Shown here: piece after piece, positions 639 through 64,000 of the stretch | Layout: each line of letters opens with the position of its first letter | Position numbering within the stretch: the first letter of the stretch is position 1 | Assembly: GCA_964016885.1 (NCBI GenBank) | Contig: OZ024757.1 | Span: 8,990,001 to 9,054,000 of the forward strand | Source: Eledone cirrhosa | Lineage: Eukaryota | Direction of reading: 5' to 3' | DNA length: 64,000 bases | Program-made: the position numbers and the translations under genes | Notes under the pieces: model-generated | The model's database searches: none | What the model was told of the DNA's origin: nothing | The model's input: only the letters and a program-made list of their open reading frames with translations

Positions 639-738
<100 letters not shown>

Positions 739-942
739 TACATATATATATATATATATTACATATATATATATATATATACATATTACATATATATACA
801 TATATACATATTACATATATATATATACATATATACAGATTACATATATACATATATATACAGATTACATATATACATATATATATATATACATATTACA
901 TATATATACATATATATATATATATACATATTACATATATCT

Positions 943-1058
<116 letters not shown>

Positions 1059-1082
1059 CATATTACATATATATATACATAT

Positions 1083-1123
<41 letters not shown>

Positions 1124-2034
1124 TACATATATACACATATATACATATTACATATATACATATTACATATATATACATATAGATATACATATTACATATA
1201 TACATATATACATATTACATATATACATATATAAATATTACATATATATATATATATATACATATAACATATATATATATATAAATATTACATATATATA
1301 TATATACATATTACATATATATATATACATATTACATATATATATATATACATATTACATATATATATATACACATTACATATATATATATATACAAATT
1401 ACATATATATATATACATATTACATATATATATACATATTACATATATATATACATATTACATATATATATACATATTACATATATATATATATACATAT
1501 TACATATATATATATACATATTACATATATATATGTATACATATTACATATATATATATATACATATTACATATATATACATATTACAGATATATATATA
1601 TACACATATTACATATATATATACATGTAATATATATATATACATATTACATATATATATATACATATTACATATATATATATACATATTACATATATAT
1701 ATATACATATTACATATATATATATTACATATATATATATACATATTACATATATTTATATATATATATTTATATATATATATATATAAATATTACATAT
1801 ATTTATATATATATATATTTACATATATATATATATATATACATATTACATATATATATATATATACATATTACATATATCTATATACATATTACATATA
1901 TATATATATACATATTACATATATACATATATATATATTACATATATATACACATATTACATTTATACATATATACATATATATATATACACATATTACA
2001 TATATACATATTACATATATACACATATACATAT

Positions 2035-2070
<36 letters not shown>

Positions 2071-2249
2071 CATATAAACATATTTCATATATACATATAT
2101 ATACAAATACATAAACATATTACATATATACAAATATATACATATATATAGAGAGATATATATATACATATATATAAACATATTACATATATACATATAT
2201 ATACATATATATATATACATATTCCATATATACATATATATATATATAT

Positions 2250-2767
2250 AAAGAATTAATATCTAGTAACATATGTATACAGATGCATATCAATGCTAGC
2301 AAATATATAGGTTTTCTCTTAGTAACTTTGTGGTTCAATGCATGGGGTTACAGAACAATAATATGAGAGACGTAAAATAAGAAAATTATAAAATTAACTT
2401 ACTTACTAAAATTTCACTCCCAACTAATTAGTTTCTGAAATGGAATAAATATACTTTCCGACGAAAATATTGAGAATCATTTCGTCGTCAGGGAAGACTA
2501 TTCTCAGCTAAGTGTCCAGGCAAAGCGAGGACTCTGGAAACTTATACAAAAATAATTCAGTGGATAGAAAATAGCAAAGCGTGGACTGGATTCCTAGCCA
2601 TTGAGAAAATCACTGCCTCTGCGTCGGTGGCTGAGAATAGTCTTCCCTGACGAGGAAATGATTCTTTATATTTTCTTCGGAAAGTATATTTATTCCATTT
2701 CAGAAACTAATTAGTTGGGAGTGAAATTTTAGTAAGTAAGTTAATTTTATAATTTTCTTATTTTACG

Positions 2768-2777
<10 letters not shown>
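2250..2777. mobile_element. Near-identical duplicate of the family A element at 121-648 (hammerheads at 2417-2496 minus and 2642-2721 plus)
   Basis: Offset of 2129 bp; part of a local tandem duplication that includes the microsatellite mosaic. Confidence 0.75.
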
Positions 2778-2865
<88 letters not shown>

Positions 2866-3077
2866 TACATATATATATATATATATATTACATATATATA
2901 TATATATATACATATTACATATATATACATATATACATATTACATATATATATATACATATATACAGATTACATATATACATATATATATATATACAGAT
3001 TACATATATACATATATATATATATACATATTACATATATATACATATATATATATATATACATATTACATATATCT

Positions 3078-3178
<101 letters not shown>

Positions 3179-3197
3179 TACATATATATATACATAT

Positions 3198-3260
<63 letters not shown>

Positions 3261-4148
3261 TACATATATACATATATATACATATTACATATATACATAT
3301 TACATATATATACATATATATATACATATTACATATATACATATATACATATTAGATATATACATATATAAATATTACATATATATATATATATATACAT
3401 ATAACATATATATATATATAAATATTACATATATATATATATACATATTACATATATATATATACATATTACATATATATATATATACATATTACATATA
3501 TATATATACACATTACATATATATATATATACATATTACATATATATATATACATATTACATATATATATACATATTACATATATATATACATATTACAT
3601 ATATATATACATATTACATATATATATATATACATATTACATATATATATATACATATTACATATATATATGTATACATATTACATATATATATATATAC
3701 ATATTACATATATATACATATTACAGATATATATATATAAACATATTACATATATATATACATGTAATATATATATATACATATTACATATATATATATA
3801 CATATTACATATATATATATACATATTACATATATATATATTACATATATATATATACATATTACATATATTTATATATATATATTTATATATATATATA
3901 TATAAATATTACATATATTTATATATATATATTTACATATATATATATATATATACATATTACATATATATATATATATACATATTACATATATATATAT
4001 ACATATTACATATATATATATATACATATTACATATATACATATATATATATTACATATATATACACATATTACATTTATACATATATACATATATATAT
4101 ATACACATATTACATATATACATATTACATATATACACATATACATAT

Positions 4149-4184
<36 letters not shown>

Positions 4185-4287
4185 CATATAAACATATTTC
4201 ATATATACATATATATACAAATACATAAACATATTACATATATACATATATATACATATATATATATAAATAGATATATACATATAT

Positions 4288-5010
<723 letters not shown>

Positions 5011-5101
5011 TATATATATACATATATACATATATATATATATATACATATATTAAGAGAGTAAAACAAAGAAGCCTTCAATACATCAAAAGTCTTTATT
5101 A

Positions 5102-5139
5102 GCCGACAATGTTTCGTCCTATTAAGGACTCATCAGGGC
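5102..5139 (-). ncRNA. Minimal type I hammerhead ribozyme (canonical core)
   Basis: Minus strand: GCC-CTGATGA-GTCCT-TAAT-AGGAC-GAAA-C-ATT-GTC-GGC, followed by AATAAA. Confidence 0.9.
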
Positions 5140-5233
5140 AATTAAAACAACAAGAAGTAATATCGATATATATACATATATAAATATTACATAAATACAT
5201 ACATTCATATTACATATATATATATATACATAT

Positions 5234-5276
<43 letters not shown>

Positions 5277-6570
5277 TACTTTTTTATATATATACATATT
5301 ACATATATATATATACATATTATATATATATAAAGATATACATATTACATATATATATATTACATATATATATATATACATATTATATATATATATATAT
5401 ATATACATATTACACACATACATATATATATATACATACATATTACATATATATATACATATATACATATTACATATATATATATATACATATATACATA
5501 TTACATATATATATATACATATATACATATTAAATATATACATATATATATATACATATTACATATATATATATATACATATATAGATATATATATAGAT
5601 ATACATATTACATATATATATACATATATACATATATATATACATATATACATATTACGTATATATATATATACATATATACATATATACATATATATAT
5701 ATATACATATATACATATATATATATATATACATATATACATATATATATACATATATACATATTACATATATATACATATTACATATATATACATATTA
5801 CATTATATATATACATATTACTTATATATACATATATACATATTACATATATATATATACATATTACATATATATACATATTACATATATATATATATAA
5901 TATTACATATATATACATATACATATTACATATATACATATTACATATATATACATATATACATATTACATATATATACATATACATATTACATATATAT
6001 ACATATACATATTACATATATATACATATATACATATATATACATATATACATATTACATATATACATATATACATATTACATATATATATACATATTAT
6101 ATATATATATACATATTACTTTTTTATATATATACATATTACATATATATATATATATATTATATATATATATACATATTACATATATATATACATATTA
6201 CATATATATATATATATTACATATATATATATATACATATTACATATATATATATATATACATATTACACATATATATATCTATACATACATATTACATA
6301 TATATATACATATATACATATTACATATTTATATATATACATATATACATATTAAATATATACATATATATATATATATATACATATTACATATATATAT
6401 ATATATGCATATATACTTATATATATAGATATACATATTATATATATATATATACATATATATATATACATATATACATATTACGTATATATATATACAT
6501 ATATACATATATATATATATACATATATACATATATATATACATATATACACATATATACATATTACATA

Positions 6571-6602
<32 letters not shown>

Positions 6603-7116
6603 CATATATACATATTACATATATATACATATACATATTACATATATATACATATATACATATATATACATATATACATATATATACATATATACATATT
6701 ACATATATACATATATACATATTACATATATATATACATATTACATATATATATATATATATATATACATATTACTTTTTTATATATATACATATTACAT
6801 ATATATATATATACATATTATATATATATAAATATATACATATTACATATATATATATATATATTACATATATATATATATACATGTTACATATATATAT
6901 ATATATATATACATATTACACATATATATATATCTATAAATACATATTACATATATATATACATATATACATATTACATATATATATATATATATACATA
7001 TTACTTTTTTATATATATACATATTACATATATATATATACATATTATATATATATAAATATATACATATTACATATATATATATATACATGTTACATAT
7101 ATATATATATATATAT

Positions 7117-7172
7117 AGTTTTAATATAGATGAGATTCTACAGGACTGTAGAATCTCATCTATATTAAAACT
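7117..7172. repeat. Perfect palindrome, 27-bp arms with 2-nt spacer
   Basis: AGTTTTAATATAGATGAGATTCTACAG-GA-CTGTAGAATCTCATCTATATTAAAACT. Confidence 0.95.
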
Positions 7173-7238
7173 GTTATACTCTGCTATGTATTGAGTACCT
7201 TACTTACTGTGGTTACCTCCGATTCAACCCGGAATAAC

Positions 7239-7328
<90 letters not shown>

Positions 7329-8038
7329 TACACATATATATATCTATAAATACATATTATATATATACATATATACATATTACATATATATATATACATA
7401 TATACATATTACATATATATATATACATATATACATATTAAATATATTCATATATATATATATATATACATATTACATATATATATATATACATATATAT
7501 ATAGATATACATATTACATATATATATATACATATATACATATATATATACATATATACATATTACGTATATATATACATATATACATATATACATATAT
7601 ATATATATACATATATACATATATATATATACATATATACATATATATATAAATATATACATATTACACATATATACATATTACATATAGATATATATAT
7701 TACATTATATATATACATATTACATATATCAACATATATACATATTACATATATATATATATATATACATATTACATATATATACATATTACATATATAT
7801 ATATATACATATTACATATATATACATATACATATTACATATATATACATATATACATATATATACATATATACATATTACATATGTATACATATATACA
7901 TATTACATATATATACATATACATATTACATATATATACATATACATATTACATATATATACATATATACATATATATACATATATACATATTACATATA
8001 TACATATATACATATTACATATATATATATATACATAT

Positions 8039-8091
<53 letters not shown>

Positions 8092-8673
8092 GATGTAAAA
8101 TAAGAAAATGATAAAATTAACTTACTTACTAATATTTTCACTTCCTCTCATCTAAGTATCCAGGCAAAGCGGGGACTCTGGAAAGTTATTCAAAAATAAT
8201 TCAGTGGATAGAAAATAGCAAAGCGTGGACTGAATTCCTAGCCATTGGGAAAATCATTTATAATTTTCTTATTTTACGTCGCTCATATTATTGTTCTGCA
8301 ACCCCGTGCATTGAACCACAATGTAAATAAGAGAAAACCTATATATTTGCTAGCATTGATATGCATCTGTATGTATATATATGTTACTAGATATTAATTC
8401 TTTATAAGTATCTCCAAATTATTTGTCGAGCAATATTGGCCATGACTGCTGCTATGGTAGCAGGCAGGCCGCTGTCTTATTAGCAAACCACTTGCCACTG
8501 ATTGACCTCGATGTCACGTGATTGATTCTTTTTGAATTTGCCACCGACGCAGAGGCAGTGATTTTCTCAATGGCTAGGAATTCAGTCTACGCTTTGCTAT
8601 TTTCTATCCACTGAATTATTTTTTAATAAGTTTCCAGTGTCCACGCTTTGCCTGGATACTTAGATGAGAATAG

Positions 8674-8755
8674 ACTTCCCTGTCGACGGAATGCTTCTCA
8701 GTATCTTCTCCGGAAAATATATTTATTCCATTCCAGAAACTAATTAGTTGGAAGT
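8674..8755 (+). ncRNA. Family A hammerhead with mutated core (CTGTCGA)
   Basis: ACTTCC/GGAAGT stem I, GGAATG/CATTCC stem II, GAAACTAATTAGTT. Confidence 0.65.
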
Positions 8756-9169
8756 GATATTTTAGTAAGTAAGTTAATTCTCATATTATTGTTCTGCAAC
8801 CCCATGCATTGAACCACAAAGTTACTAAGACATAACCTATATATTTGCTAGCATTGATATGCATCTGTATGTATATATGTTACTAGATATTAATTCTTCA
8901 TAATTATCTCAAAATTATTTGTCGAGCAATATTGGCCATGACTGCTGCTATGGTAGCAGGCAGGCCGCTGTCTTATTAGCAAACCACTTTCCACTGATTG
9001 ACCTCGATGTCACGTGATTGATTCTTTTTGAATTTGCCACCGACGCAGAGGCAGTGATTTTCTCAATGACTAGGAATTCAGTCCACGTTTTGCTATTTTC
9101 TATCCATTGAATTATTTATTAGTAAGTTTCCAGTGTTCAAGCTTTGCCTGGATACTTAGATGAGAATAG

Positions 9170-9251
9170 ACTTTCCTGACGACGGAATGCTTCTCAGTAT
9201 TTTCTTCGAAAAATATATTTATTCTATTCCACAAACTAATTAGTTGGAAGT
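9170..9251 (+). ncRNA. Family A hammerhead with GAAA mutated to CAAA
   Basis: ACTTTC/GGAAGT stem I, CTGACGA, GGAATG/TATTCC stem II. Confidence 0.6.
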
Positions 9252-9419
9252 GATATTTTAGTAAGTAAGTTAATTTTATAATTTTCTTATTTTACGTCTC
9301 TCATATTATTGTTCTGCAACCCCATGCATTGAACCACAAAGTTACTAAGACAAAACCTATATATTTGCTAGCATTGATATGCATCTGTACGTATATATGT
9401 TACTAGATATTAATTCTTT

Positions 9420-9799
<380 letters not shown>

Positions 9800-9800
<1 letters not shown>

Positions 9801-10270
9801 TAAAACTGAGGTTGTCTGTCTGTCTGTCTGTGGGTCTGTCTGCCTGTCCGTCTGTCTGTGTGTCTATCTGTCTACTAAATCCGTCGGCACACATCTCCTC
9901 TTAAACCGTACGTTCAAATTTCGGTGAAATTGCTACACTCATAGATGAAGGTCCAGCGGAAACATCGGTCAAAAAAATATTCAAATCGACTCACGCCAAA
10001 TGCAAAAATCGAATTTGTAATATATTGATTTTTCAGTTCAAATGTATAAATAGAGATGCGAGACGAGTTATTTCCCTTTTCTGGCGTCACTTTCTTATCT
10101 CTTTATGTTACGTTATAAACGACGCGGTGGACCGAAGAACAATTTCATGCAAAGACGAGACCAAGTTTATGGTGTAAATGGAGTCGTTAGATTAATATTC
10201 TATTTAAAATAACCGAATGATTTCCAGCCCCGGAGTTTAAGAATGATGTAAATAAAATTTTAAACGAAAA
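9800..10270 (+). mobile_element. Probable 5' part of a non-autonomous Helitron
   Basis: TATATAAAACTGAGGTT followed by (GTCT)n, typical of non-autonomous Helitron 5' ends; no 3' end identified. Confidence 0.4.
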
Positions 10271-19597: not shown

Positions 19598-19794
19598 GTA
19601 TATATATATATATATACACACACAATTATATATATATAAATATAGATATATATATTGTTATACTTTGGGAGGGTCATGTTGCCAATAAGAAACACACGCA
19701 CCAGTTGCTTTCACTTCAATTTATTATATATTTATAAATTTATTTATAAATATATTTATAAATATATTTATAAATATATTTATAAATTTATAAA

Positions 19795-20466
19795 TTGGAA
19801 AAAATGGTAAATAATGACATAAATGGGTCCTGCCCCTTGTATAGGAGCACATTTTGGAATAGAATAGAAAGAACTAGGAACAAGGCCAATAGAATAAACT
19901 CATGGTATGATAGCAATAAATACCAGAGTGTAATGTTCATCAATACAACTCCTAGAGGCGAACTAGCCTACAAATTTAGAAGGGCCCTAAATAAACATAA
20001 ACTCAATATTAAGATAGTAGAAAGACCAGGTACCTCCGTAAAAACACTTATTAGCAAGACATACCCGTTCCAAAGACCCTCATGCATAGATAAGAAATGT
20101 ATAACCTGTAAAATAAGCCCCCATATTAACTGTAAAACTAGAAATGTAGTGTATAGCATAAGATGTACTGAAGGACAATGTAGAAACAAAAATATAGTGT
20201 ACATAGGTGAGACAGCTCGTAGTATAGGGGAACGGATAAATGAACACTGGCGAGACCTTCAAGATAATAAAGAATCATCTGTACTCTACCAACATGCTAA
20301 GATAGAACACAAGGGTAAATTAGAGAACATAGAAATAAAAATAGAATCCACACACAGAAAAGATGCAATGTTTAGGCAAATTACAGAGGCAGTAAGCATA
20401 AAAGAATTACAACCAAAATTAAATAGAAAATATGAGTGGAACAGCATCATCACAACTTACAATTAA
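19795..20466 (+). CDS. Penelope-like element C-terminus: Cys-rich linker plus GIY-YIG endonuclease (RT missing)
   Basis: NVVYSIRC..C..IVYIGETARSIGERINEH..SVLYQH..EH..RQITEAVSI..LNRKYEW; the supplied start is a TTG at the truncation point. Confidence 0.92.
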   Translation: MEKMVNNDINGSCPLYRSTFWNRIERTRNKANRINSWYDSNKYQSVMFINTTPRGELAYKFRRALNKHKLNIKIVERPGTSVKTLISKTYPFQRPSCIDKKCITCKISPHINCKTRNVVYSIRCTEGQCRNKNIVYIGETARSIGERINEHWRDLQDNKESSVLYQHAKIEHKGKLENIEIKIESTHRKDAMFRQITEAVSIKELQPKLNRKYEWNSIITTYN

Positions 20467-21640: not shown

Positions 21641-22421
21641 ATTGGCTGGCTAACCCAGACATAGTCCTAAACAAATGAAACACTGGTGGAGTCGTAGGGG
21701 TACTCTAAGTGACATACAGTATTTCTCGGGCATATTTTAAAACCTGATGGAGCCCATCACCTCTCTCGTCTGAACACAATTGAGATCTGAATCAAATTTC
21801 AAGTGAAATCAGATATTGTATGGATTCATATAGACTCATAACTCCTGGTCTAAACACAGCCGATTTCTCCCAGAGAAAGATAGAAAAGAAGTAAGAAAAA
21901 GATATAGAGGAACAATTGACTCCTACTAATAAAAAGATGGAAGTTAAACTGGTGTTGACATGTCACCAGGAGAGGAGATGATTGCTATATTAGAGAGTCC
22001 TATCAGAATGAATTTTTCACTAAACTGCCATAGAGCAGACCTCTCTAGATATAGAAGGATAACATTTATAGAGAATGCTGGAATACTACTGTTTGCATTG
22101 GAGAGAATTACTCTGGACAGGAAAGTTGATATCTACAGTTTACCAATATAGAAATATAAAATTTCCACTGTTAAATCTATCTCTGCTTCTTAAGTATTCT
22201 GTATTATCTCATACTGTTTCTTTCTTATTACAGAATACCAGATCACATTGGGATAAATTATTATTTTCAATCTCGGATACATCACCTCTATTTATCATCA
22301 TTTGAAGACTATTAACTGAAATCACATTTGAGGGAAATATAGAAGATATATTTTTTAGGAATATAATCTAAAAAGAATTACAAGTAAAACATTTGTATAT
22401 TCGGTTGAAGAAAAAATTATT

Positions 22422-24020
22422 ATGGAAAATAAATTGAGTGAAAAGGTTAAATGCGAAACACAATCGAAAATGTTTAGTATTCCTGGTGAGATGACAAAGG
22501 TTGGAGAAAAGAAGCCATATCACTACAGTATCTGTGCTAAATCATTCATTAAACGTACCTTAACTACTCACAAAGTTATACATACGGGAGACATACCATA
22601 TCACTGTAATATCTGTGCTAAATCATTCTCTGGGAAAAGTAGCCTAACTAGTCACAGCCATTTACCTACAGATGAGAAGCCATATCGCTGTGAGATCTGT
22701 GGTAAATCATTCTCTCAAAGTAGTCACTTAACTAGACATAAACGTATACATACAGGACACAGGACATATCACTGTGACATCTGTGGTAAATCATTCAATA
22801 AAAGTAGTACCTTAACTACACACAAACGTTCCCATACAGGAGACAAGTCATACCACTGTGACATCTGTGGTAAATCATTCTCTGTAAGTGGTAACTTAAC
22901 TAGCCATAAACGTACCCACACAGGTGACAAACCATACCACTGTGATATCTGTGGTGAATCATTCTCTCAACATAGTACCTTAACTACGCACAAACATATA
23001 CATACAGGAGACAAGCCATATCACTGTAACATCTGTGGTAAATCATTCTCTGCATGTAATACCTTAACTAGCCACAAACATATACATACAGGAGACAAGC
23101 CATATCACTGTGATATATGTGGTAAATCTTTCTCTGCATGTAATACCTTAACTAGACACATACGTACCCATACAGGAGACAAGCCATATCACTGTGATAT
23201 CTGTGGCAAATCATTCTCTCAAAGTGGTCACTTAACTTTACACAAACGTATACATACAGGAGACAAGCCATATCACTGTGGTATCTGTGGTAAATCATTC
23301 TCTCAAAGTAGTACCTTGACTACGCACAAACATATGCATACAGGAAACAAGCCATATCACTGTGACATCTGTGGTAAATCATTCTCTGCATGTAATACCT
23401 TAACTAGACACAAACATATACATACAGCAGACAAGCCATATCACTGTGATATCTGTGGTAAAACATTCTCTGAAAGTAATGCCTTAACTAGCCACAAACA
23501 TATACATACAGGAGACAAGCCATATCACTGTGATATATGTGGTAAATCTTTCTTTCGAAGTAGTCACTTAACGAGACACATACGTACTCATACAGGAGAC
23601 AAGCCATATCACTATGATATCTGTGGCAAATCATTCTCTCAAAGTGATCACTTAACTTTACACAAACGAATACATACAGGTGAGAAGCCATATCACTGTG
23701 ATATCTGTGGTAAAACATTCTCTGAAAGTAATGCCTTAATTAGCCACAAACATATACATACAGGAGACAAGCCATATCACTGTGATATATGTGGTAAATC
23801 TTTCTCTCAAAGTAGTCACTTAACGAGACACATACGTACCCATACAGGAGACAAGCCATATCACTGTGATATCTGTGGTAAATCATTCTCTCTAAGTGGT
23901 ACCTTAACTAGCCACAAAAGTACCCATACAGGAGACAAGCCATACCACTGTGATATATCACTCTCTGGAAAAAGTAGCCTAACTACTCACAAACTCATAC
24001 ATGCAGAGGAGAAATCCTAA
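22422..24020 (+). CDS. Tandem C2H2 zinc-finger protein, 532 aa (14 intact and 4 degenerate fingers), single coding exon, no KRAB/ZAD domain visible
   Basis: Repeated [11 protein letters not shown]...LT.H.R.HTGDKP; candidate splice acceptor TTTCTTATTACAG at 22233; AATAAA at 25182. Confidence 0.95.
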
Positions 24021-36298: not shown

Positions 36299-36804
<506 letters not shown>

Positions 36805-37657
36805 ATTTCATAAAGGAATCTCACCACTTCCACTCATATATTAAGAAATGTAGCATTCAGTTGGTAAAGTAATAAGATGTATGAAAGCGTAAGACTGATC
36901 TTGGAAGAAGAAAAAGCAAGTGCTTATATATATATATATACAATAGCACTATATATATATGTGTGTGTGTGTATCTTTTATTTTTGTTAAAGTGAGATAA
37001 GCTCTATTTACAATAACAGCCTCAGCTCATAAAACAGACGAATAAGACTTCTATAGTTAAGGTTCTTGTTATTGAAGACAGTTCAGGTGACAAGAGAATT
37101 AATATCAATAATTTCAAAAGATGAAGGTTAATATATATACATATATATATATATACAGACATACAGTGTGTAGGTATGAGAGAGAAATAAATAAATAGAC
37201 GTGTGTGTAGAAATATGTGTGTAGGTGTTGTAATAAATCAAGATATTTCACTTCAGATAGAAAAGTTCACAATGTTTGTGTTGAGGTGGAAAACGAAATA
37301 ATACGTACTTTAGTTCTCAAGACCAAATATAAAGTCAAGAAAAGTTAGTAAAAACTAAATGTTCACTGATTTCTGATTAAAATAATATTTTCCTGTCCTG
37401 TAAAATGTTGAACAAGCACTTCAATATTTAATAATACAGGTGATAAAACAACAACTATAAGGTAAATAAGTCACCTTATGTTATTTACAAACATTAACGT
37501 CCACCTTAATATGAAATAATCACCATAAAAGATAAAATTAGATGAGGTTTAAGTTGTAACAATGGAGCTGATATAAATGGTAATACTTCACCGGTGTCAT
37601 AACTTAAAAGTCGCCCACATAATTTAATACATTCAGAAACAACTTCCGTTATATGAA

Positions 37658-54570: not shown

Positions 54571-56649
54571 TAAAGTCTGTCTTAAGCCAGAAGGCTCATT
54601 TGGCCGGAGCTTATCCCGGTTTCATGGTGTGAAGCGACTGAGAGTACAAGATCCCCCTGGACAGGACACAGTCCATCACAGGGTTATGTAAGGTATATAT
54701 TAAATGACTGAGAGTATAAGACTCCCCCTTGGACAGGACACAGTCCATCACAGGGTTATGTAAGGTATATATTAAATGACTGAGAGTCACCCTGGACAGG
54801 ACACCAGTCCATCGCAGGGTTATGTAAAGTATATATTAAGCAACTGAGAGTACAAGACTCCCCCCTGGACAGGACACCAGTCCATCGCAGGGTTATGTAA
54901 GGTATATATTAAGCAACTGAGAGTACAAGACTCCCTCTGGACAGGACACCAGTCCATCACAGGTTATGCAAAGTATATATTAAGCAACTGAGAGTACAAG
55001 ACTCCCCCCTGGACAGGACACCAGTCCATCGCAGTGTTATGTAAAGTATATATTAAGCAACTGAGAGTACAAGACTCCCCCTGGACAGGACACCAGTCCA
55101 TCACAGGGTTATGTAAGGTATATATTAAGCAACTGAGAGTACAAGACTCCCCCTGGACAGGACACCAGTCCATCACAGGGTTATGTAAGGTATATATTAA
55201 GCAACTGAGAGTACGAGACTCCCCCCTGGACAGGACACCAGTCCATCGCAGTGTTATGTAAAGTATATATTAAGCAACTGAGAGTACAAGACTCCCCCTG
55301 GACAGGACACCAGTCCATCACAGGGTTATGTAAGGTATAAATTAAGCAACTGAGAGTACGAGACTCCTCCCTGGACAGGACACCAGTCCATCACAGGGTT
55401 ATATAAGGTATATATTAAGCAACTGAGAGTACAAGACTCCCTCCTGGACAGGACACCAGTCCATCACAGGATATGTAAAGTATATATTAAGCAACTGAGA
55501 GTACAAGACTCCACCCTGGACAGGACACCAGTCCATCACAGGTTATGCAAAGTATATATTAAGCAACTGAGAGTACGAAACTCCCCCCTGGACAGGACAC
55601 CAGTCCATCACAGGGTTATGTAAGGTATATATTAAGCAACTGAGAGTACGAGACTCACCCCTGGACAGGACACCAGTCCATCACAGGGTTATGTAAGGTA
55701 TATATTAAGCAACTGAGAGTACGAGACTCCCCCCTGGACAGGACACCAGTCCATTGCAGGGTTATGTAAGGTATATATTAAGCAACTGAGAGTACAAGAC
55801 TCCCCCCTGGACAGGACACCAGTCCATCACAGGATATGTAAAGTATATATTAAGCAACTGAGAGTACAAGACTCCACCCTGTACAGGACACCAGTCCATC
55901 ACAGGTTATGCAAAGTATATATTAAGCAACTGAGAGTACGAGACTCCCCCCTGGACAGGACACCAGTCCATCGCAAGGTTATGTAAAGTATATATTAAAC
56001 AACTGAGAGTACAAGACTCCCCCCTGGACAGGACACCAGTCCATCACAGGTTATGCAAAGTATATATTAAACAACTGAGAGTACAAGACTCCACCCTGGA
56101 CAGGACACCAGTCCATCACAGGGTTATGTAAAGTATATATTAAGCAACTGAGAGTACAAGACTCCCCCCTGGACAGGACACCAGTCCATCGCAAGGTTAT
56201 GTAAAGTATATATTAAGCAACTGAGAGTACGAGACTCCCCCCTGGACAGGACACCAGTCCACCGCAAGGTTATGTAAAGTATATATTAAGCAACTGAGAG
56301 TATAAGACACCCCCGGACAGGACACCAGTCCACAGCAGGGTTAAGTAAAGTATATATCTAGCAACTGAGGGTATAAGACTCCCTCCTGGACAGGACACAA
56401 GTCCACCGTAGGGTTATTATGTAAAGTATATATTAAGCAACTGAGAGTACAAGAATCCCCCCTGGATATGACACCAGTCCATCGCAGGGTTAAACCTCCA
56501 GCTATTGCTGGTATTCATTTTCAGCTGAGTATACTGGAGCAATGTGAAGTGAAGTGTTTTGCTCAAGAACACAACACGCAACCGAGGAATCGAGCCCACA
56601 ACATTATGATTGTAAGTCCAACACCCTTACCACTAGGACACGTGCCTCC
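54571..56649 (-). mobile_element. tRNA-CORE SINE expanded by an internal ~72-73 bp tandem array (about 25 copies, 54635-56490)
   Basis: Head and CORE at 56500-56649; tail AAACCGGGATAAGCTCCGGCC..GACAGACTTTA at 54571-54630. Confidence 0.9.
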
Positions 56650-59389: not shown

Positions 59390-62300
59390 CACACATACAT
59401 ACAAATACCTGTCACTTATTTTACACACACATCGGCCTTACAACTTCATACACACATACATACAAATACCTGTCACTTAATTTACACACATATCGGCATT
59501 AAACTTTCATACTATATTTTTTTGTAGAAGTAACTTTAACTCTTTCTTTTCGACATCAAAATACACACATACATACAAATACCTGTACATGTTTTTTTTT
59601 TTTTGGGGGGGGGGGGGGCCTTTATCATCAATCTTTTTACATTCAATTATCAGCCTTATACTTTCAAAGTCAATTTTTATGTTGACGTAACTTTCACCCT
59701 TTATTTTTCGATACCTATTTACTTACTAACATTTGTATCCCAACAACAATAACAATATTCATAAACAAACAGTAGATTTTCAAAGTAAATTATTCTGTAG
59801 AACTAACTTTCACCCTTTCTTTTGGACATAAAATGCCACCTAAAAAGAGAAGTCGCCTCAGTCGACATACCGCGTCAGCAGTGGCGCAAAAGGCTACTAT
59901 AACAAACGAGTCCTCTGAGGAAAATGCTTCAAGACTTTCACAGACAGCCTTACGTTCAGCAGAATGTCGAGCCGCTGAAAGTTTCCAACAGCGCACCGCA
60001 CGCCTAGCCAAAATGGCTTCATACCAGGCTTCTTCCAGGGCTTCAGAGAGCCGTGAACAAAGGTCGAAGCGCCTGGCTAGAAACGATGCGACTAATGCTG
60101 CTTCCAGGTCTTTGGAACGTTTAAAACAACGGACGGCTCGCCTTCCTACGAACGCTGCGGCTATGACTACTTCCATGGCTTCTGAAGATGCAGACGGGCG
60201 GTCCATTAGCATTGCAAATATTGCTTCTGCTATTGCTGCCAGACCTTCCCACCAACCACACGACCAATGTTCTACGTTCAACCGTAACAGTCGAAGGCGA
60301 AGAGCTGCACGCGGTGTGACGAGCCCCAACAGCCCTTACTGGCACCCACGGGCTTTCAAGTATGAGCAAAACGTTAATTACTCGATGCGCTCTGACATAA
60401 ATATAGGCGAGATGCGCTTCAATTGCCAATTCTGCAATGCTACAAAGTGGGCTGGGGAGCCACCTGCAATGTGCTGCTTAAACGGAACCGCCAGAGCCTT
60501 TGAAGGAACTACTGACTGGTTATACCTCAAGGTCATCCAAATTCCTTCAGATCATCAGGAAATACAATTGTGCGTTTCAGATGACTTCTTTCGGGGCTAA
60601 CGTTGTCAGAGAAAGTGGTTGGATGCCTACTTTCAAGGTCCAGGGGCAGGTGTACCATCTTATTGGGTCGCTCCAGCCACTACAAAATTGCAAGCCTTCG
60701 TTCCTTCAAATTTACTATATTTCGAACTACAGTAGGCAAGTTGATGTGCGGTTTGGCGTTATTCCACCACCTGCAAACACTGGCGCTGACAACGTAGACA
60801 GGGACGTGCTGCTCAGTCTGCAAAACATGCTTCATGAGCACAACAGCTATATTCGCAGTTTTAAATACGCCTTGGAAACAGTTCCTTCACCAAACTTCAC
60901 CATTGTCATCGATGCTGACAAAAGACCTTCTGGAGAGCACGCACGCCGTTATAACGCTCCTTCGTGCAATGAAGTGGCTGTAGTTCTCCATGGTGAACAG
61001 CACAATAAACGAGACATAGTTCTTCAAAGCCGTGACAGTGGTCTTCAACGTATTAATGAGACACATCGTTCCTACGACGCCCTGCAGTATCCCCTTCTTT
61101 TTGCATACGGAGAAGACGGCTACCATTTCGGCATTCCTCAGTGCAAACCAAACGAGCCCACTGCTGCGACATCTAAAACTGTTTCATGTATGGCTTTCTA
61201 CTCATACCGCTTCATGACGAGGCCTAATGATTTTAGCCCCCTGCACAGATCACGGGAACTGTTTCACCAGTTTGCCGTTGACATGGCTGCAAAGATGGAG
61301 TCGGAGAGACTGTGCTTCATAAAATTGAATCAGAAGCAGCTGCGCTCAGACTCCTACATCCATTTGCGTGACGGCATCAGGAATGACACTGACCCCCGGA
61401 ACATCGGCAAAATGTGCATTCTACCTTCAACATATACAGGGGGGGCCACGGTACATGCACGAGCGATCACAAGACGCTATGACTTTCATTCGGCATTATG
61501 GGCGCCCCGATTTATTCATCACGTTTACGTGTAACCCGAAGTGGGTTGAGGTAACGCGAGAACTTCTCCCAGGGCAGCAGTACTGCCACCGCCATGATAT
61601 TATTGCCAGGGTTTTTAGACTGAAGCTGACTAAGATAATTGATTTAATCAAAAAGGGGCAGGTTTGGGGGCCTGTTAAGTGCCACATGTATACTGTTGCG
61701 TGGCAGAAGATAGGGTTGCCACACGCGCACATTTTGGTTTGGTTGGTCACCAAAATAGACCCTACAGTTATAGATGACATCATCGCAGCAGAAATCCCCG
61801 ACCCCTCTGTTGACAGGCAGCTGTACGACATTGTGAAGGCACACATGATGCACGGTCCGTGCGGTCGCGGTTTTCAAGAGTTCTCCTCATGCCACAAAAA
61901 CCATGTGTGCACTAAACGATACCCAAAGAGGTTCGTGGACGAGACACAGACCGGCGGCGACGGATACCCACTGTACAGACGAAGGGGCCCTGAGAATGGT
62001 GGATTCACTATGACGTTACGGGGTCATCGTGTTGATAATCGGTGGGTGGTCCCGTACTGTCCATTTCTGATGAAAACTTTCAACGCTCATATAAATGTTG
62101 AGTTCTGTCATTCAGTAAAATCGATAAAGTACATATGTAAATATGTTAACAAGGGTTCCGACGCTGCCATGTTCAGCCTTCAAAAGGACAATAGCATGGA
62201 CGAGGTGTCGCAGTACTTGGCAGGTCGATATATCAGCAGTGGTGAAGCTTTTTGGCGCATATTCGGGTTTCCAATTCACCAAAGGCAACCCGCCATCATA

Positions 62301-64000
62301 CAACTAGCGGTTCATTTGGAAAATGGCCAGCGGGCCTACTTCACTGAACAGACTGCTGCCCAATTGGTGGCCAATCCTAAAGAAACAACTTTGACTGGTT
62401 TTTTTAAGCTTTGCCAAGTTGACACATTTGCCAAAACACTTTTATACCCTCAGGTCCCGTCCTACTACGTGTGGTCTAACAACACTTGGGTGCGTAGGAA
62501 GTCGGGTCAGGATGTTGAAGGACATCCTGGTGTCAAGTTTAACAGTTGTCTAGGAAGAGTGTACACTGTACCTTCCAACCAGCATGAGTGTTTTCATCTG
62601 CGCCTCTCCTCCATGATGTTTTCGGCCCACAAAGCTTTCGGGACATAAGAACTGTTAATGCTGAATTATGTGATACTTTCCGGGAAGCATGCTTTAGGCG
62701 TGGCCTTTTGGAGGACGATTCACAATGGGCCGCCACAATGGCAGAGGGCGTTTTGTTAAAATCTCCTAAAAGACTAAGATCACTTTTCGCTATTCTACTC
62801 CTATGGTGCGACTTGGGTGATCCGGCCTCTTTATGGATTACCTACAAAGATTACATGTCTGAAGATTTCCTGCGTCACGCTCGGGTGCTAAATCCATCAA
62901 TGGAAGTCGAGTACAGTGACCTCATTTACAACAGGGCGCTGCTTGAAATTGAAGATACTGTTCTCAATATGGGCGGTAGTGCGTTGCAAGTGTATGGCCT
63001 AACTTCTACAAACCGGGAAGGCGCAAACACTCTGTCTTCGGATTTGCTGTGTGAGACATGTTATAATGTTGACGAGCTTGCCCACTACATAGCGGAGAAT
63101 GAGCCAAAGCTCCTTCCAGAACAGAAGTTTGCTTACAACTCCGTTGTTAATTCTGTCCGGGGCAAAGCTGGGGGGATATTTTTCCTGGACGCTCCTGGGG
63201 CAGTGGGAAAACTTTTGTCAACAAATTAATATTGGCTGAGATTAGGCGAACAGAAGGCATTGCCTTAGCTGTGGCATCTTCTGGAATTGCAGCTACTTTG
63301 TTGCCAGGCGGCAGGACAGCTCACTCCACTTTCAAGCTCCCGCTTGACTTAGCGAAGACTGAGACACCAACTTGCAACATCAGTAAGAGCTCCGATCAGG
63401 CAGAAGTGTTCAGACGATGCAAGCTTATCGTTTGGGATGAATGCACGATGGCCCACAGAGGTGCTCTTGAGGCGCTAGATAGATCTCTGAGAGACATTAA
63501 AGACTCTACGACTCCCATGGGAGGCATAACACTTCTTCTCTCAGGGGACTTCAGGCAAACACTTCCCGTTATTCCAAAGGGGACTAGAGCTGATGCAGTA
63601 CGTGCGTGTCTTAAGTCATCCAAATTGTGGCCCCTGGTGAAGACTCTGAAACATCACACTAACATGCGTGCTCATATGCGAGATAACATCGCATCAGCAG
63701 CATTTTCTCAGACCCTCCTTGCACTTGGCGAAGGCAAAACACCATCGGATGAAAAGGGTAATATTGCCATTGACTCACTTTGTACCGTGGTTAATTCGCC
63801 TTCTGATCTCAGGGATGCAGTGTTCCCAGATCTAAAAGCAAATTATCAGAATATGGATTGGATTGGCCAAAAGGCTATTCTGGCCCCGAGGAATAAAACT
63901 GTTCAACATATTAACGATCAAATGCTAATACTCATTCCTGGAGATTGCTATGTATATAAGTCTATTGATAGAACTCCTGACCCCGAGGACATCATCAACT
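58367..64000 (+). mobile_element. Autonomous-type Helitron that continues beyond the window
   Basis: Probable 5' end A|TCATTATCTATAAAAGG, repetitive 5' leader, RepHel coding region. Confidence 0.92.
59833..64000 (+). pseudogene. Helitron RepHel (HUH Rep + Pif1 helicase), split by 4 frameshifts
   Basis: DLFITFTCNPKW, GLPHAHIL, KYICKYVNKG; FLDAPG-GSGKTF, VASSGIAATLLPGGRTAHSTFKLP, IVWDECTM, GDFRQTLPV. Confidence 0.96.

Follow-up and report, generated by a model that had tools for sequence, protein, structure and literature searches.

A non-coding hammerhead repeat of Eledone cirrhosa with the insertion layout of Penelope-like elements: a probable non-LTR retrozyme

Analysis of a 64,000-nt stretch of the Eledone cirrhosa genome (henceforth referred to as the 'window'; G000:C18:8990001-9054000, contig OZ024757.1 of assembly GCA_964016885.1; genome of 3.0 Gb in 1,796 contigs) indicates that a repeat given as retrozyme-like in a preliminary description does belong to such a family: its hammerhead core and stems are conserved, it has no open reading frame (ORF), and in none of the loci sampled does it form the terminal repeat of a coding Penelope. 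We consider it very probable that the family is a non-coding element mobilised by Penelope-like elements (PLEs) and under selection for its hammerhead. The full model, that of a non-LTR retrozyme copied by a Penelope-like reverse transcriptase (RT)-endonuclease from a monomer circle, is the reading that we favour, with reasonable rather than high confidence.

The insertion in the window and its superfamily

Positions 8084-9422 of the window are a single head-to-head insertion inside (TA)n, set between an (AT)n-derived tract on the left (645-8087), which also carries other hammerhead-bearing elements, and a (TA)n tract on the right (9419-9802). The direct arm on the plus strand (8257-9422, 1166 nt) comprises 2.2-2.3 units by sequence and repeat analysis (TRF gives a period of 496 and 2.2 copies); numbered from the cleavage site, its first base is unit +30 and its last lies at a fixed end at +175 to +179 (henceforth referred to as the 'long' end), followed by (TA)n. 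The inverted arm on the minus strand consists of an inner piece (8146-8256, unit +332 to +442) and an outer piece (8084-8145, unit +1 to about +57), the latter running into (TA)n at a different fixed end (the 'short' end). In this arm +442 is fused exactly to +1, so that the inner piece abuts unit +1 directly and the arm is without a hammerhead; the junction is one event and fits a jump at a cleaved end. The preliminary description of about 2.3 direct copies plus an inverted fragment, set in (AT)n, is accurate. The stretch between the two fixed ends (the 'tail'; 9303-9422, plus strand, ~118 nt) has two hairpins, a short one that is conserved and a long one that covaries. A GTCACGTGATTGATTC box (8513-8528, second copy at 9009-9024, plus strand) is near-invariant in an alignment of 15 units; we take it to be E-box-like and a candidate internal promoter element.

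A sister insertion of subfamily B lies at 118-648, with a minus arm (118-502) that reaches the long end and a plus arm (503-648) that reaches the short end, and holds two hammerheads with intact cores. A second copy of this insertion (2247-2777) is identical to it at 525 of 526 bases; the four copies previously listed at 288-2721 do have intact cores, but they are not independent, being the two arms each of one duplicated insertion. The insertion at 8087 in turn has its odd junction and its flanks in common with three other loci (L014, L021 and L029), and is therefore a segmental duplicate and not an independent insertion. Likewise, the reported 496-nt spacing of cleavage sites holds for the window copy but not as the family unit, which is 522 nt, the window copy having a deletion of ~26 nt. 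The window repeat is confirmed as a real, mutated, non-coding copy of a superfamily.

Several other elements were observed in the window. An unrelated tandem family with a unit of ~490-510 nt and its own hammerhead occupies 4288-5013 and recurs elsewhere as four tandem copies (L187:7500-9901); its hammerhead at about 4572-4610 has a 6-nt palindromic stem III and a GUA site, and an inverted piece is present too. A ~120-nt insert within the AT tract carries a compact type I hammerhead on the minus strand (5098-5142), which is the sole Rfam hammerhead match in the window (RF00163, 31.7 bits; gathering threshold 34), and a short foldback insert at 7117-7230 matches the end of another hammerhead-bearing family (L016, L059 and L195). 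Apparently, the AT tract is a hotspot into which PLE-type elements insert. Further afield are a PLE fragment with a GIY-YIG domain (19786-20463), C2H2 zinc-finger arrays (22359-24017 and 36302-36807; a 553-codon frame, Pfam zf-C2H2), a 73-bp minisatellite of about 23 copies (54632-56492), arrays of 47, 48, 72 and 80 bp, and several long open frames at 59776-63999 that resemble a Helitron Rep-helicase. The genome size of 3.0 Gb, the zinc-finger arrays and the AT microsatellites are in keeping with the cephalopod host named in the preliminary description. Outside the window, tandem families with one hammerhead per unit and a spacing of 459 and 466 nt were noted at L181:6700-7200 and L203:1258-1724, and further long-stem-II hammerheads at L132, L196, L199, L205 and L206; it appears that retrozyme-like families are numerous in this genome.

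Across the genome, an exact 29-nt hammerhead pattern covering two subfamilies gave 2,681 matches, a core-to-site pattern gave 9,518 intact-core hammerheads of the superfamily, and exact junctions of one fixed end with (TA)n numbered 3,734; the reversed control of each gave 0, and matches in the thousands against none are not due to chance. There are at least five subfamilies, with stem II reading GGAATG/CATTCC, GAAATG/CATTTC, GCAATG/CATTGC, GTAATG/CATTAC or GAAAGG/CCTTTC. Whole units are mostly 510-558 nt long with a GC content of 35-37%, neighbouring cleavage sites lie 522 or 548-557 nt apart, which gives one type I hammerhead per tandem unit, and the best-scoring copies are ~95-98% identical to the query (in best-hit samples). 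The monomer had been called non-coding, and we agree: its longest Met-start frame is 28 aa, its longest stop-free frame is 59 codons (in a natural dimer) and the arms are pure unit sequence. One tandem array (satellite) of ~60 kb consists of the subfamily B unit (G000:C9, about 18,403,000-18,464,800; L034, L043-L044, L053-L057 and L124-L125); many of its hammerheads are mutated, and a higher-order period of five units is indicated. Among contigs from four sequencing runs of unrecorded kind, three runs, all with one organism code, contain the unit, and the run of another code has just short, low-depth pieces of it. One run contig of 587 nt spans the whole unit and fits a tandem array and a circle equally; a loose-end motif taken from the run contigs had 0 matches in the genome.

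The hammerhead motif and the predicted fold of the unit

The first hammerhead of the direct arm (8674-8755, plus strand) has a stem I of ACTTCC (8674-8679) and GGAAGT (8750-8755), a core CTGTCGA in which A6 is mutated to U, a stem II of 6 bp (GGAATG/CATTCC) with a capped hairpin, an extra C after A9 opposite an extra A before G12, and ACTAATTAGT as stem III; the predicted cut falls after 8749 (GUU). In the second (9170-9251, plus strand) CTGACGA is intact, G12 is changed to C at 9232, stems I and II contain one G-U pair each, and the predicted cut falls after 9245. The stems, the GUU sites and a core mutation in each array copy can be read off the sequence as they were first described; judged by these mutations, both hammerheads of the 8084-9422 insertion are probably inactive. 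The copies at 288-592 and 2417-2721 have intact cores and a stem II of GAAATG/CATTTC; the compensatory change that had been pointed out between this and GGAATG/CATTCC is seen, and further double changes occur across the subfamilies. The C(UUCG)G loop reported for the 513 copy is there but is not universal, subfamilies C and E carrying other loops.

That core and stems are conserved had been put forward as a check on the retrozyme reading, and both are kept, with compensatory changes, across subfamilies that align at roughly 70-80%. Covariation was scored in 53 copies hand-chosen from 116 distinct ones, the satellite array and most core-mutated copies being left out. In this set 99.3% of 689 hammerhead cells are paired, against merely 27-53% in slid controls (a shuffle control is inflated by relatedness). 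Double-sided changes occur at 4 of the 13 pairs, all four Watson-Crick combinations are found at one stem II pair (AU20/GC16/CG11/UA5), and the 10-nt stem III palindrome is without variation in 53/53 copies. The core position that differs between subfamilies is N7, the free one. Short-stem-II variants (23 copies) were considered as a separate class and rejected as sporadic deletions.

The family has the CUGANGA and GAAA boxes, the UH site and the three stems of a type I hammerhead, which the copies at 8674 and 9170 do not have in full, and it lacks the base pair 10.1-11.1 next to the core. An atypical base of stem II had been described, and in all main subfamilies a C does follow A9 and an A precede G12, either as a C.A apposition or with both bases bulged around a G-C pair. 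This apposition, the GUU site and the ability of A14-U17 to extend stem III mean that activity may be low. By analogy, the C.A lowers the expected activity and does not preclude it: a natural hammerhead with a U-U mismatch at the same position is on record (PMC3088659), PLE hammerheads typically carry an additional 5' base and have a lengthened stem II (PMC4209133), and U.U appositions at this position occur in other hammerheads of the same genome. Folded in isolation, 7 of 8 family hammerheads are no better than their shuffles (z -0.55 to -1.37), and one reaches -2.12. Stem III is predicted at -9.0 kcal/mol as a duplex versus +1.5 kcal/mol as a hairpin; metazoan motifs that act as dimers likewise have a palindromic stem III that favours the duplex. 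Rfam RF00163 (Hammerhead_1) has in common with the family the type I topology, the CUGANGA and GAAA boxes, an NUH site and a stem I internal loop after 5-6 bp. It gave no match to the family copies of the window at E <= 1, probably because of the ~49 nt between the core boxes and the extra junction bases. Rfam miRNA matches in the window scored under the gathering threshold and were discarded as AT-repeat noise.

The fold of the whole unit was predicted as well. One unit folded as linear RNA gave a z of -5.0, and circular folds gave -3.6 to -5.1 in 4 of 5 units and -1.3 in a deleted unit. Aligning 15 units over their first ~290 nt gave 57 pairs, 6 of them with double changes; the covarying helices outside the hammerhead include a long-range helix and the long hairpin of the tail. 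The 3' strand of stem I has a predicted partner about 265 nt downstream, and as the RNA is extended to +290 the predicted probability of stem I falls from 0.98 and 0.91 to 0 in subfamilies A and C. In the subfamily B fragment stem I is weak throughout, and in the subfamily A fragment stem II is not favoured. Overall, these models suggest a ribozyme that may act during transcription and be off in the finished unit.

Insertion layout, coding Penelope elements and the nature of the template

In the best-hit loci, two diverging arms end at +57 to +61 and at +175 to +179 past the cleavage site, and subfamily C has counterparts of both sites. The three locus sets obtained first are such best-hit samples, which are biased and were not used for layout counts; these were made on junctions in chromosome order, namely the first 90 of the 3,734 minus one member of a duplicate pair, with one place skipped (n=89). 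An inverted arm is present in 63 of the 89 insertions, and 61 of the 63 end at the long site, about 120 nt past the short one, that is, with a tail at one end of a tandem or inverted insertion. The other 26 consist of one arm each, and in 18 of these AT is present at the opposite side. The short end is AT-flanked by design of the search; at the long end (AT)4 lies within 60 nt in 56 of 60 cases, a bias towards microsatellite targets. The positions of the inner ends vary, and in most cases there is an overlap of a few bases (microhomology). Published PLE insertions have an inverted 5'-truncated partner, a 30-40-bp tail at one end and a microsatellite bias (PMC8557442); in vitro, reverse transcription was shown to begin at two internal sites that delimit the tail, with cleavage and extension of each target strand (PMC11167929). 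By analogy with these systems, the two fixed 3' ends of a head-to-head insertion are the Penelope two-start 'tail' signature, here on a purely non-coding unit.

This layout bears on whether the repeat is a satellite or MITE-like foldback that spread at the DNA level and whose hammerhead is a relic. The inverted arms, the one long satellite array and the segmental duplicates of the window copy are what such an element would leave. Unlike terminal inverted repeats, however, the outer ends are two different fixed sites and the inner ends vary, the end junctions are dispersed in their thousands, and both the hammerhead and other parts of the unit show covariation of the RNA type. We regard DNA-level spread as very improbable.

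The unit and the sampled arms contain no ORF for an RT with GIY-YIG endonuclease, and identity with an autonomous PLE was rejected on this ground. Coding elements that could provide these activities are plentiful in the genome. A young coding family (L121-L123, G000:C1) has two overlapping frames of 476 and 775 codons, the second with RT and GIY-YIG domains. Its intact copies are numerous, it is found in head-to-head insertions, and its hammerhead bears a U.U at the stem II base. On account of a cysteine linker motif of the kind reported in PMC8557442, we call this family Neptune-type. In the family with 775-aa frames, all 3 opposed pairs examined share the two-ended layout and have a tail of ~60 nt. 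Other coding PLE families (L180-L188, L198 and L150-L157) were seen to have hammerheads with a U3-A8 core variant, which is on record (PMC4209133).

The preliminary description had named one outcome that would undo the retrozyme reading, namely that the monomer is the LTR of a coding Penelope, its copies being 5'-truncated insertions of that element. The ends, inversions and target site are as in PLEs (PMC8557442), coding PLEs are many, and at one locus (L260, G000:C1, about 56,517,200) a Neptune-type 3' region is fused to a retrozyme arm in the same orientation. The parent was sought among 28,343 candidates for a Neptune-type protein query and 10,597 for Pfam GIY-YIG, of which 150 of each were scored, a small part of the whole; 46 stretches were retrieved and sensitive blastn was run on their ends, and the search covered about 100 PLE-containing loci. 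No terminal repeat homologous to the unit was found at the ends of coding families in these about 100 loci, and none of the 55 arms that reach >350 nt upstream of the cleavage site continues into an ORF. The L260 junction has no second instance in the genome and is either a template switch or a later deletion. Moreover, the length of 40 of the 150 arms is greater than one unit, and these arms re-enter unit sequence. For the bulk of copies, the reading of the unit as just the pseudo-LTR of a coding element is largely refuted, and we hold it to be highly unlikely.

What remains to be weighed is the template, for which our preferred reading is a circle. The cleavage junction is crossed by 113 of 150 arms, twice by 28, and the longest arm is 1665 nt. 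Recurrent variants (those seen in three or more insertions; 23, 19 and 28 best-hit loci) are common to units of one arm in 84-90%, of opposite arms in 78-89% and of different insertions in 30-32%, and in 8 of 10 insertions with at least two whole units the closest distance within the insertion is smaller than that to the nearest outside unit. Such sharing is predicted by rolling-circle copying of one monomer; later duplication, conversion or homogeneous tandem donors can also be its source. Variants private to one insertion are mostly unshared within the arm (18/78, 22/63 and 24/118 shared). Of the 5' ends of arms, 17 fall within +1 to +16, where 6.8 are expected (P 7e-4, 2.5-fold), but the stem II hairpin shows an equal enrichment, with 15 where 6.0 are expected, so that RT stalling explains the near-site ends as well as run-off does. 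Since, in addition, only 1 of the 17 near-site ends lies exactly at +1, we rejected run-off as proof of cutting in vivo.

The main alternative to the circle is the same non-autonomous Penelope parasite copied from uncleaved linear multimers of tandem donors, with no circle and a hammerhead that is weak or serves for trimming. An Anolis PLE assayed in vitro used uncleaved RNA, hammerhead cleavage being dispensable for insertion (PMC11167929), and an uncleaved RNA accounts as well as a circle for the unbroken cleavage site in the 113 arms. The hammerhead has an atypical junction (C.A, GUU), the satellite at about 18.40-18.46 Mb of G000:C9 offers long tandem donors, and a few insertions (L008, L009, L019 and L083) mix variants. 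Other insertions argue differently: at L012, L017, L072 and L084 the units within an arm show 0-2 differences, versus 3-7 to other insertions, and near-identity within an arm that sets it apart from other insertions means that some step copies one unit repeatedly. Also against linear donors, the termination hazard is alike before and after the first junction (0.0027 and 0.0025 per nt) and mildly higher later (0.0041 and 0.0060), and core and stems are conserved across subfamilies. On balance we think linear multimers a rather unlikely template, albeit one with real points in its favour.

Proposed life cycle and comparison with known systems

In the circular model that we prefer, a tandem copy would be transcribed, perhaps from the conserved internal box. 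The hammerhead is predicted to fold in the nascent RNA and to cut after GUU, most likely as a dimer via the palindromic stem III; the released unit would then be ligated into a circle, in which a downstream strand is predicted to sequester stem I and so prevent re-cutting. A Neptune-type protein might nick both strands of (TA)n and start reverse transcription at the internal sites +57 and about +176. The arms, with fixed 3' and variable 5' ends, would be joined head-to-head, often at short microhomology, after running through the cleavage junction up to three times, an outcome that is seen in the genome. Some copies are later multiplied by segmental duplication or satellite expansion, as the duplicates and the array described above document.

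A bolder version is speculative, and we doubt it as a whole: viroid-like circles with no coding Penelope parent would mimic the two-site start, a dimer of the enzyme would copy the circle in both directions by rolling-circle reverse transcription, and each insertion would be the fossil of one circle. Its hammerhead, with a long stem II, would be gated by the C.A, act as a dimer and be off in the finished circle, and several unrelated families of ~460-550 nt would follow the same course. If true, the insertions would document, directly and for the first time from a genome, the way in which retrozyme circles of animals integrate. A 2026 preprint links retrozymes to Penelope elements by homology and co-occurrence and describes the mechanism as still to be elucidated (10.64898/2026.07.22.740005). 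With thousands of young insertions and intact candidate enzymes in one genome, it becomes testable which protein moves retrozymes and, with defined RNA, whether the circle is the template. The family also adds a natural hammerhead architecture missed by Rfam, with a C.A junction and a long capped stem II.

As to earlier reports, neither a cephalopod retrozyme nor a two-ended PLE signature on a retrozyme was found in open-access text; the supplements of PMC7229834 and 10.64898/2026.07.22.740005 may list one of the former. The main text of an Octopus vulgaris repeat annotation does not mention ribozymes or retrozymes (PMC13282606), and the giant squid paper merely counts Rfam hammerhead matches (PMC6962438). 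The Neptune and Poseidon PLEs (PMC8557442, PMC11167929 and PMC4209133) resemble the present family in their partial tandems, inverted 5'-truncated partner, tail at one end and microsatellite targets, and in a hammerhead upstream of the RT starts with one additional base separating A9 from G10.1 and an elongated stem II. In contrast to them, the present family has no RT/endonuclease ORF and has a 10-nt palindromic stem III where theirs is a minimal motif, and its tail is ~118-125 nt, compared with 30-40 bp in print and ~60 nt in the main coding family.

The vertebrate retrozymes derived from PLE pseudo-LTRs (pLTRs; Li, Clavereau and Pollet 2026, 10.64898/2026.07.22.740005) are similar in size range, in having few units per locus and in their proposed dependence on PLEs. 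They differ in that a homologous pLTR was not found here in the sampled loci and that the present insertion ends carry the PLE signature. The preprint proposes pLTR derivation without making it universal: 24 of 57 Xenopus retrozyme families match known elements, and 1 of 9 dimers of Xenopus retrozymes cleaved. The present repeat had been called larger than usual for a retrozyme, which is correct when invertebrate retrozymes are the yardstick (~170-400 nt; PMC7229834) but does not hold for the 51-972 bp range given in the preprint.

It is to the metazoan non-LTR retrozymes of coral, mussel and axolotl (Cervera and de la Pena 2020, PMC7229834) that the family is best compared. In these, cleavage and circles have been demonstrated; in the present family both are predicted. 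The units of the present family are 510-558 nt long, beyond the 150-450 bp criterion used there; it has a long stem II with an internal loop and a capped hairpin and the C.A at its base; and it occurs mostly as arms of 1-3 units, head-to-head and with two fixed ends (the word 'inverted' is absent from the main text of that paper). The likenesses are non-coding tandem units with one type I hammerhead each, low GC, a predicted self-paired RNA, a palindromic stem III and coding PLEs in the same genome. The unit has neither coding capacity nor an LTR-type frame, it is small with a GC content below 50%, and its RNA is highly self-paired by prediction. On these testable features the family is a metazoan non-LTR retrozyme, a class that is already established.
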